DNA of 64,000 bases from assembly GCA_038205935.1 (NCBI GenBank), contig JBBRBK010000005.1:4704-68703 (forward strand). Direction: 5' to 3'. Below are positions 55,181 to 56,683 of this stretch, one piece after another (the first letter of the stretch is position 1; each line of letters opens with the position of its first letter). The notes beneath the pieces are model-generated. The model had not been told where the DNA came from, ran no database searches, and saw only the letters and a list, made by a program, of their open reading frames with translations. This stretch comes from Campylobacterales bacterium. GTDB lineage: Bacteria; Campylobacterota; Campylobacteria; Campylobacterales; Sulfurimonadaceae. A program made the position numbers and the translations under genes.

Positions 55181-56683
55181 TTGGCGGTAAGCGTGTTATT
55201 TAATTCTTATATATTTATCTTCCTCTTTTTACCAATAACTCTCGTAGGTTATTTCTGGCTTTTACACAAACGGCTTGTACTTGGTTCAAAAATCTGGCTT
55301 GTCGGTGGGAGTCTTTTTTTCTATGGGTATTGGAATATCGTTTATATCCCTCTTTTACTCGCAAGTATCTTTGTAAACTTTTTTGTAGGTTCTGCAATGG
55401 CAGATGCTCCAAAAGCTGATGGGGGGGGGAATTCTTCTAAGCTTTTAAAAACATTCTCTTCTAAACAACTTCTTCTTTTTGGTATCTTTTTTAACATCGC
55501 TCTTTTGGCATATTTCAAGTACACAGACTTTTTTCTTACAAACTTCAATGGCATCTTTGGGGCAAATGTCCCTTTGTCTCACATCATCTTACCCCTTGGG
55601 ATAAGTTTTTTTACCTTTACACAAATCGCTTTTTTAGTGGATGCCTACAAACAAGAAGTCAAAGAGTATGACCTTGTTCACTATATGCTTTTTGTGACTT
55701 TCTTTCCACATTTACTCGCAGGTCCGATTTTACATCATAAAGAGATGATGCCTCAGTTTGCAAATAAATGGAACTTTGCTGTAAGGTGGCGAAATGTAGC
55801 AAGTGGTCTCTTTCTTTTTTCTATTGGGCTTTTTAAAAAGGTAGTTATCGCGGATACTTTTGCTACTTGGACGAATACAGGATTTGACTTTGCAACGACA
55901 CTTAATCTTGTAGAAGCTTGGGCTACAAGTTTAAGCTATACCTTACAGCTTTATTTTGATTTTAGCGGTTATACAGATATGGCAATCGGCGTAGCCTTGA
56001 TGTTTAATATCCGCCTTCCCATCAACTTCAACTCTCCATATAAAGCAACAAATATTCAAGATTTTTGGAGAAGATGGCACATTACACTTTCAAGATTTTT
56101 AAGAGATTATATTTACATCCCTCTTGGTGGCAATAAAGTATCAAGATTTAGAAACTACTTTAATCTTTTTTCTGTTTTTCTCATTGGCGGTCTTTGGCAT
56201 GGTGCGAGTTGGATGTTTGTTATCTGGGGAGCTTTACACGGCAGTGCTATTGTTATACATAGAATCTGGGCAGATCTAAAATGGAGTATGAATAAATATC
56301 TCGCATGGTTCATCACCTTTAACTTTGTAAATATTGCTTGGGTGTTTTTTAGAGCTAAAGATTTTGATAGCGTTAAAAAAGTTCTTGGTGGGATGGTAGG
56401 ATATGAAGGGATTGTACTACCAGGTAGTTTGGCTGTAAAGTTGGCTTTTTTGAGTAATTATGGGATTGAATTTCAAGAGCAATTTTTATCAAATTTAAGT
56501 ATAAGTGGAAGAAATCTGTTATTTATTGGAGGGGTCATAGTATTTGCTTTATGGTTCAAAAATTCTAATGAATTTGTGAATAAATTATCAATAAAACAAT
56601 TATTCTGGATAAGTATTTTATTATGGTTTTATTCTATTCCTTTTCTTGCAAAGGTAAGTGAATTTTTATATTTTAATTTTTAA
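55181..56683 (+). CDS. MBOAT family O-acyltransferase, copy 2 (contains G9 tract)
   Basis: Paralogue of 52620-54044, roughly 75-80 percent nucleotide identity by eye over the first ~230 nt. RRWHITLSRFLRDYIYIPLGG, GGLWHGASW. Non-ATG start: TTG at 55181 or GTG at 55193. Confidence 0.85.
   Translation: MAVSVLFNSYIFIFLFLPITLVGYFWLLHKRLVLGSKIWLVGGSLFFYGYWNIVYIPLLLASIFVNFFVGSAMADAPKADGGGNSSKLLKTFSSKQLLLFGIFFNIALLAYFKYTDFFLTNFNGIFGANVPLSHIILPLGISFFTFTQIAFLVDAYKQEVKEYDLVHYMLFVTFFPHLLAGPILHHKEMMPQFANKWNFAVRWRNVASGLFLFSIGLFKKVVIADTFATWTNTGFDFATTLNLVEAWATSLSYTLQLYFDFSGYTDMAIGVALMFNIRLPINFNSPYKATNIQDFWRRWHITLSRFLRDYIYIPLGGNKVSRFRNYFNLFSVFLIGGLWHGASWMFVIWGALHGSAIVIHRIWADLKWSMNKYLAWFITFNFVNIAWVFFRAKDFDSVKKVLGGMVGYEGIVLPGSLAVKLAFLSNYGIEFQEQFLSNLSISGRNLLFIGGVIVFALWFKNSNEFVNKLSIKQLFWISILLWFYSIPFLAKVSEFLYFNF
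55421..55429 (+). repeat. G9 homopolymeric tract within MBOAT copy 2 (candidate slipped-strand phase-variation site)
   Basis: gctgat-ggggggggg-aattc. Encodes D-GGG-N and is in frame (ON) as sequenced. It is the only G/C run of 7 or more that I find in the window. Confidence 0.85.

Follow-up and report, generated by a model that had tools for sequence, protein, structure and literature searches.

Introduction

Switching of genes by homopolymer tracts is textbook phase variation in Campylobacter, Helicobacter, Neisseria and Haemophilus and is interpreted in these genera as an adaptation to host immunity. The O-methyl phosphoramidate (MeOPN) transferase genes cj1421 and cj1422 are poly-G contingency genes of Campylobacter jejuni. 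The poly-G genes of this gut pathogen are found in capsule, lipooligosaccharide (LOS) and flagellin-glycan loci, for example cj1295, and carry intragenic tracts of G8 to G13 within surface-glycan modification genes, such that gain or loss of a single G shortens the protein (PMC8355987, PMC6321876). Switching rates of 1e-4 to 1.6e-3 per division have been reported for them (PMC8355987), and the Epsilonproteobacteria as a group are without MutL and MutH (Miller et al., PMC2147049). Here we describe a run of nine G (G9) in a gene for a membrane-bound O-acyltransferase (MBOAT), termed MBOAT2, that lies in a 64,000-nucleotide stretch, hereafter the window, of a Sulfurimonadaceae metagenome-assembled genome (MAG; assembly GCA_038205935.1, contig JBBRBK010000005.1, 75.9 kb). 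The locus shares with the C. jejuni genes an intragenic tract of this length range, truncation of the product by a one-G change and membership of a lineage reported to lack both mismatch repair proteins. It differs from them in that the tract sits in an MBOAT gene with an SGNH-type partner, in a Sulfurimonadaceae MAG known from sequence.

Stochastic ON/OFF O-acetylation of surface glycans has its own precedents, and the switch of Haemophilus influenzae oafA is a tetranucleotide repeat. The phase-variable O-acetyltransferases covered by one review, such as oafA and Salmonella OafB, which is controlled epigenetically by methylation, belong to the AT3 family and have been linked to serum or phage interactions (PMC9558356). 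The repeat described here, in contrast, is a homopolymer inside an MBOAT gene. Among MBOATs, WssH has WssI as its partner. More generally, an MBOAT beside a membrane-anchored SGNH-type transferase is the arrangement found for AlgI with AlgJ/AlgX (alginate), PatA/PatB (peptidoglycan), WssH (cellulose) and Bacillus PatA1/PatA2, and the accepted division of labour is that the acyl group is brought across the membrane by the MBOAT, with the choice of acceptor falling to the SGNH partner (PMC9558356). The two genes described here are arranged in the same way, with the differences that no alginate, cellulose or Ape genes adjoin them and that none of the known pairs has been reported with a repeat switch. 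We propose, at a probability of roughly 0.7, that G9 acts as a contingency tract, turning an accessory cassette for glycan O-acetylation on and off by slipped-strand mispairing.

A G9 tract within the MBOAT2 reading frame

The tract occupies positions 55421-55429 on the forward strand and supplies codons 77-79 (GGG GGG GGG) of MBOAT2, a 496-amino-acid (aa) enzyme of the AlgI/PatA/DltB-like type encoded at 55193-56683 (+). The sequence at 55415-55432 reads GCT GAT GGG GGG GGG AAT, with Gly77-79 encoded by the run, and the gene is in the ON frame as sequenced, as an initial sequence-only reading had stated. The start was placed at GTG 55193 on the strength of a conserved N-terminus, (M)LFNSY, although the open reading frame (ORF) opens at TTG 55181, and the first 76 residues are conserved across 36 homologues. 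The public gene call (P0001, 428 aa) begins at ATG 55397, 24 nt before the tract, and leaves 55193-55396 (204 nt, 68 conserved residues) as intergenic; the identical start is called on a second assembly of the locus (L088).

The window has a G+C content of 35.5%, and G9 is its sole run of G or C of at least six, which upholds the claim made from the letters alone for runs of at least seven; four C5 runs follow it in length, and no second run of five or more G was found within the 64 kb. When 64-kb sequences were simulated with Markov models trained on the window itself, G/C runs of at least nine appeared in 1% of the sequences at order 1 and in 0/300 at both order 2 and order 3. Runs of at least six appeared in 47-91% of the simulations and are absent from the real window except for G9, and such runs are thus depleted there, which leaves G9 conspicuous. 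Codon usage does not account for the tract either. GGG makes up 9.5% of the glycine codons in the window. Its ORFs contain seven stretches of at least three glycines, six encoded by mixed codons and one, the tract, by GGG GGG GGG. Even the Gly5 of the neighbouring gene (partner2) is written GGA GGA GGT GGA GGA. The longest A/T homopolymer of the window is a T9 at 32469-32477, inside an ORF at 31810-33324 (-).

A contingency locus is expected to combine a G/C tract of about eight or more inside a reading frame or promoter, a tract that composition and codon usage leave unexplained, and loss of the product when one repeat unit is added or removed. In MBOAT2 the nine G lie within a 496-codon gene, a run of this length arises in at most 1% of simulations, and the altered versions stop early, with 84 aa translated from G8 and 82 aa from G10, close to the 85 codons estimated beforehand. 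Both stops fall well before the catalytic core (His336), whereas G9 encodes the full 496 aa.

In the AlphaFold model of MBOAT2 the tract maps to an inter-helix coil (model residues 72-82, pLDDT about 60), a loop whose length and sequence vary freely among homologues. The loop reads DAPKADGGGNSSKLLKTF in the window, DAPRDDKISKALKTF in the nearest relatives (74-76% identical) and DAPRGKRRAKLLKTF in the resident paralogue MBOAT1. The window form is longer by three residues, or nine bases, and the nearest relatives have no Gly3 at this position. The earlier comparison of DAPKADGGGNSSKLL with DAPRGKRRAKLL, offered to show that the loop is not conserved between the paralogues, was correct.

Poly-G tracts recur at two loops of the enzyme family

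Loci encoding MBOAT relatives were retrieved by tblastn, blind to the presence of tracts, which resulted in 80 loci, 23 of them (229 kb) labelled Campylobacterota. Within these 23 loci there are three G/C runs of at least eight, and all three lie inside the MBOAT gene, which accounts for 14% of their sequence (P about 0.003). Per MBOAT gene, the longest G/C run is bimodal in this set, at 4-6 or 9-10 with none between. The tracts fall at two places, site A, which is the tract loop of the window, and site B, a second coil at residues 153-160 of the window protein; both map to inter-helix coils in the model.

At site A, a Sulfurospirillum-labelled MAG (L014) carries a G9 in frame with an Arg-Gly-Gly loop, and L089 carries a G9 in frame with flanks that read aatG9aattctaag, compared with gatG9aattcttctaag in the window. 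Four further genes have the tract in frame at different lengths (L093 and L097, G9; L092, G8; L091, G13). In L126 a G8 is found where its relatives need G9, and the gene is probably out of frame, the frame having been assigned by homology on a contig that begins 9 nt upstream. The remaining case, L090, has an interrupted Gly3 (GGAGGGGGA). With the window included, 6 of the 7 glycine-containing loops at site A that were read as DNA are uninterrupted G runs of at least eight, as is the Arg-Gly-Gly loop of L014.

At site B, where the homologue tracts fall at about residue 142, a Campylobacter concisus isolate (L020) has a G9 in frame and a C. concisus-type gene (L083) a G15 in frame. Two different metagenome assemblies (L081 and L082) have a G10 that splits the gene into 148 + 350 aa, and the protein cluster that matches this split gene has 37 members. 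In a distant Campylobacterales MAG (L058) an out-of-frame G10 was observed, and in L167 the Gly3 is interrupted (GGAGGGGGC). AAEES or AAGEG is found here in other genes of the C. concisus type. The C. concisus homologue sits between priA and ispG/gcpE, with a G9 in strain AAUH-9UCpp, and both ON (G9, G15) and OFF (G10) alleles of it are present in public data; a locked tract allele of this gene, as distinct from these, would have the form GGAGGTGGC. The G10 alleles also have a start codon at the tract or immediately ahead of it (for C. concisus, GTG CTA CGG GGG...), and a long, N-terminally truncated MBOAT ORF has been annotated from the near-tract GTG in both assemblies (L081, 3001-4053; L082, 1431-2483).

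The presence of tracts at two loops of these homologues, both in frame and out of frame, gives strong indirect support to the contingency-locus reading. A neighbour-joining tree, which is crude, places the tract-bearing genes scattered among tract-free relatives, with the window gene in a tract-free clade, and this scatter suggests several independent gains of tracts. The partners of the tract-bearing MBOATs belong to at least three unrelated classes, and a conserved MBOAT with highly variable partners fits the division of labour described above. The L090 homologue is embedded in a large cluster of glycan-biosynthesis genes that include a CMP-sugar synthetase, GT4 glycosyltransferases and EpsG, which supports a surface polysaccharide as the target for the family.

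Poly-C runs were also observed upstream of MBOAT genes, namely a C9 (5804-5812) and a C7 (5947-5953) in L018 and a C8 (157-164) in L093. Within a conserved 5' leader the C7 and the C8 are found at equivalent positions, flanked by a TTATAAT box and an AGGAG ribosome-binding site, and may, from this placement, form a second, expression-level switch; L093 holds both the leader C8 and the coding G9. Among the AT-rich loci with Campylobacterota-like MBOATs, four bear implausible organism labels (L012, L018, L008 and L015: Anaeromyxobacter dehalogenans, Cloacimonadota, 'Helicobacter cetorum' and 'H. pylori PMSS1' MAGs). The MAGs with the two Helicobacter labels come from cave or environmental samples, and these labels suggest mis-binning or mislabelling in the public records. 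A further 71 matches of a second metagenome pattern (L131 and 70 others) lie outside MBOAT genes and were set aside as chance.

MBOAT2 and partner2 form an acquired cassette

MBOAT2 is a membrane acyltransferase of the DltB/AlgI/PatA type. It scores 124.4 bits against the Pfam MBOAT model (PF03062; gathering cut-off 27), its best sequence match in the PDB is DltB (E=3e-28) with the histidine of the WHG motif aligned, and the top Foldseek match of its AlphaFold model is again DltB (6bug, E=1e-8). The catalytic histidine of the multi-helix membrane fold, H336, is invariant in 37 sequences, and a separate SGNH-type partner adjoins the gene, partner2 starting 8 nt after the MBOAT2 stop codon. DltB thus resembles MBOAT2 in sequence, fold and catalytic residue. 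Identity with DltB proper, the enzyme of teichoic-acid D-alanylation, was rejected, as MBOAT2 reaches 170 bits against the NCBIfam model TIGR04091, whose equivalog cut-off is 375, and dltA, dltC and dltD are not among its neighbours; the MBOAT pairs are flanked by glycogen genes and a P-type ATPase. The Campylobacterota are Gram-negative.

The partner2 gene (56692-57765, +) encodes a 357-aa membrane-anchored SGNH/AlgJ-AlgX-like protein, and the earlier assignment of an SGNH partner downstream of the tract was upheld by several lines of evidence. The protein scores 35.3 bits against Pfam ALGX (PF16822; gathering cut-off 26.5), and an exhaustive search returned 922 relatives. In an alignment of 69 family members, G90 and S92 of the GDS motif and H342 of the DDTHW motif are invariant and D339 is near-invariant, which together supply the Ser/His/Asp triad of an AlgX/AlgJ-like SGNH protein, and the family profile matches AlgJ (4o8v) at E=7e-4. 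The AlphaFold model (pLDDT 95.5) has an N-terminal helix at residues 2-33, and Foldseek ranks SGNH esterases and PatB highest among its matches, with low TM-scores; those to the PatB structures are weak (0.3-0.5, E about 0.02). The GDS motif precedes DxxH in partner2, the classical SGNH order, and AlgJ and AlgX differ in their motif order. The protein is presumed to transfer the acyl group onto a glycan acceptor. No Pfam esterase or GDSL match that would indicate a linked Ape esterase was found in ten ORFs scanned between 48960 and 63689.

A second pair lies immediately upstream, consisting of MBOAT1 (52632-54044, +; TTG start, no tract) and partner1 (54054-55157, +). The two MBOATs are paralogues, as proposed, and 66% identical. 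The 367-aa partner1 has a membrane anchor and possible GTS and DLYH motifs; it gave no match to Pfam, NCBIfam or PDB sequences and no detectable BLASTP similarity to partner2, and is on motif grounds a putative, divergent SGNH-like protein. Its 90% protein cluster has 29 members, including a named Sulfurimonadaceae MAG, and the corresponding clusters of Pgm, CoaBC and partner1 from the window include proteins of named Sulfurimonadaceae or 'Thiovulaceae' MAGs. The 90% cluster of partner2, in contrast, is a singleton.

Comparison of the window with congener L084 by blastn gave flanks that are 91-92.5% identical and no match between 55157 and 57817. This strain-specific segment of 2.66 kb (+) comprises a promoter-like box, MBOAT2 and partner2 and is hereafter called the cassette. 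In congeners L084-L087 the gene order is rpsA, pgm, a 268-aa gene, a P-type ATPase, MBOAT1, partner1 and then glgB on the opposite strand, such that MBOAT1 is conserved, the cassette is absent and partner1 abuts glgB. A recent tandem duplication as the source of both MBOATs was ruled out by their 66% identity, their unrelated partners, the absence of the MBOAT2-partner2 pair from the congeners and the low G+C content of partner2 (26.3%, compared with 35.5% for the window). Judged by these same features, MBOAT2 and partner2 are an acquired accessory cassette. A -10-like box, GATATAAT, is found at 55158-55165 (+), 27 nt upstream of the GTG start, and is followed by TTGGCGGTAA. The same succession precedes MBOAT1 (box at 52597-52604) and its orthologue in L084, and its presence ahead of both MBOAT genes suggests that the cassette may bring its own promoter. 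A generic scan for promoters and terminators, which gave 30 sites where 26 were expected, was uninformative and does not list the box at 55158.

Proposed switch and alternative explanations

In the mechanism we propose, replication slippage would, as in C. jejuni, add or drop a G at high frequency, and MBOAT2 would toggle between the full-length enzyme and a stub of 82-84 aa. With frequent gain and loss of a G, cells with and without this acetyl decoration of a surface glycan would coexist. In the ON state the acyl group would be carried over the membrane by MBOAT2 and attached by partner2 to a particular surface glycan; in the OFF state, expression of partner2 may in addition be reduced by polarity. 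The host is probably free-living, and the selective agent is likely to be recognition of surface glycans by phages or grazers rather than host immunity. The appeal of the sequence-only reading to Campylobacter and Helicobacter holds for the class of mechanism and less well for the host, which is a Sulfurimonadaceae MAG from a lineage whose first genomes were reported without such tracts.

Several observations weigh against the proposed switch. No length variation was seen at the tract itself. A contig from the Logan assembly of SRR19962012 (L088) is 100% identical to positions 53766-55756 and also has G9, and it may share reads with the MAG, in which case the two G9 assemblies are the same data. 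A second genome carrying the cassette was not found by protein, cluster, metagenome or exact look-ups. A scan of JGI metagenomes with the tract flanks and a variable gap gave 0 matches and no variants from the same population, and exact look-ups of the 428-aa call and of the hypothetical G10 product (421 aa, MGGGNSS...) returned nothing on record. The protein search recovered no relative of MBOAT2 above 76% identity, and tract lengths of MBOAT2 are therefore not comparable among strains; a scan of genome contigs likewise gave no close relative, with a best match of 65-68% identity. In congeners L084-L087 (about 56 kb) no G/C run of at least six was found, and most of the homologue tracts are in frame, though protein-based searches favour intact genes. 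The genomes of Sulfurimonas denitrificans, Arcobacter butzleri and Wolinella have been reported without poly-G:C tracts, and extra DnaQ-type exonucleases possibly stabilise repeats in free-living relatives (PMC2147049). Given tract-free relatives of this kind and the possible compensation by DnaQ, the switching rates of C. jejuni may not be transferable to this lineage.

In the most probable of the alternatives, G9 is a stable or near-stable Gly3 run that arose by slippage or arrived with the acquired cassette, was tolerated in a permissive loop, and entails neither a maintained switch nor meaningful ON/OFF heterogeneity. The loop is indeed hypervariable in length and sequence, the cassette is foreign, both assemblies have G9, and hypervariable tracts are reported missing from free-living relatives. 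A Gly3 encoded by mixed codons, which the sequence-only reading had named as the pattern that would speak against a switch, does occur in two homologues (L090 and L167), though not in orthologues of MBOAT2. At 9.5% usage, however, three successive GGG codons are expected in about 1/1000 Gly3 motifs, yet six of the seven glycine loops at site A are uninterrupted. Moreover, the nearest relatives lack the Gly3, homologous tracts vary in length and break the gene, and G/C runs are otherwise purged from the window. We consider a stable run unlikely.

Programmed recoding, by transcriptional slippage or ribosomal frameshifting, would yield a fixed ratio of full-length to truncated product and no heritable switch, and a G10 allele would then express the N-truncated protein of 421 aa. 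The start codons are suggestive in this respect, as G10 would create an in-frame ATG at the tract (55419-55431, ATG GGG GGG GGG AAT) and a downstream ORF is called in the C. concisus G10 alleles from a GTG that immediately precedes the tract. As sequenced, however, the gene is in frame and needs no recoding; the truncated products would lose three conserved N-terminal helices, and length variants exist at the DNA level in homologues. This explanation is accordingly a poor one, and far less probable than a stable run. A sequencing or assembly artefact (two-colour poly-G or a miscalled homopolymer length), with a different true sequence or a pseudogene, is the least credible of all, for although homopolymers are error-prone and the source is a MAG, the run is internal and in frame with conserved MBOAT sequence encoded on both flanks, a contig from a second assembler has the same G9, and equivalent tracts are found in many independent assemblies and one cultured isolate.

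Implications of the proposed slipped-strand switch

The mechanism that we favour, a classical homopolymer contingency locus, is already known. What is noteworthy is the occurrence of the tracts in Sulfurimonadaceae-type and other non-pathogen Campylobacterota and their apparently convergent recurrence at two loops of one enzyme family. No paper linking MBOAT genes with phase variation in Campylobacter was found in the literature, and neither the PhasomeIt paper nor its supplement names any MBOAT or acetyltransferase gene. A broader interpretation, which we advance tentatively and rate somewhat short of even odds, is that two permissive MBOAT loops have acquired poly-G switches repeatedly and independently, in mobile glycan O-acetylation cassettes of an MBOAT and an SGNH partner throughout the Campylobacterota, and that phase-variable surface acetylation is an ancient, environment-wide and probably phage-driven strategy of the phylum rather than an adaptation to animal hosts.

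If this is true, the cassette and its switch would form a transferable unit whose carriers include the probably free-living Sulfurimonadaceae. With tracts in Sulfurimonadaceae, in Sulfurospirillum-labelled and C. concisus sequences and in unclassified Campylobacterales, it may be that surface-glycan acetylation is switched stochastically in many Campylobacterota outside hosts, and the two-component MBOAT/SGNH acetylation systems would join the gene families targeted by repeat switches. The C. concisus gene between priA and ispG offers a culturable test system.

Other features of the window

A second window-specific insertion relative to L084 was observed at 51619-52550, between the P-type ATPase gene and MBOAT1. 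A gene in this insertion (51866-52564, +) encodes a 232-aa protein rich in Gly, Asn and Gln with a C-terminal SHOCT domain. On the other side of the acetylation genes lies a glycogen cluster (57812-63689, -) that comprises glgB, two tandem glgA paralogues and a galT-like gene, and pgm is encoded upstream of them at 46509-48107 (+); in the congeners, two GH57 genes continue the series. The glycogen cluster has no evident functional link to the MBOAT pairs. Further upstream, an RND efflux permease is split into two ORFs of 528 and 570 aa (39193-40779 and 40779-42491, +), the first matching the N-terminal and the second the C-terminal half of the family model, with a stop and a start codon that overlap as TAATG at the junction. 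This split looks like a deliberate one with translational coupling rather than a frameshift in a repeat.

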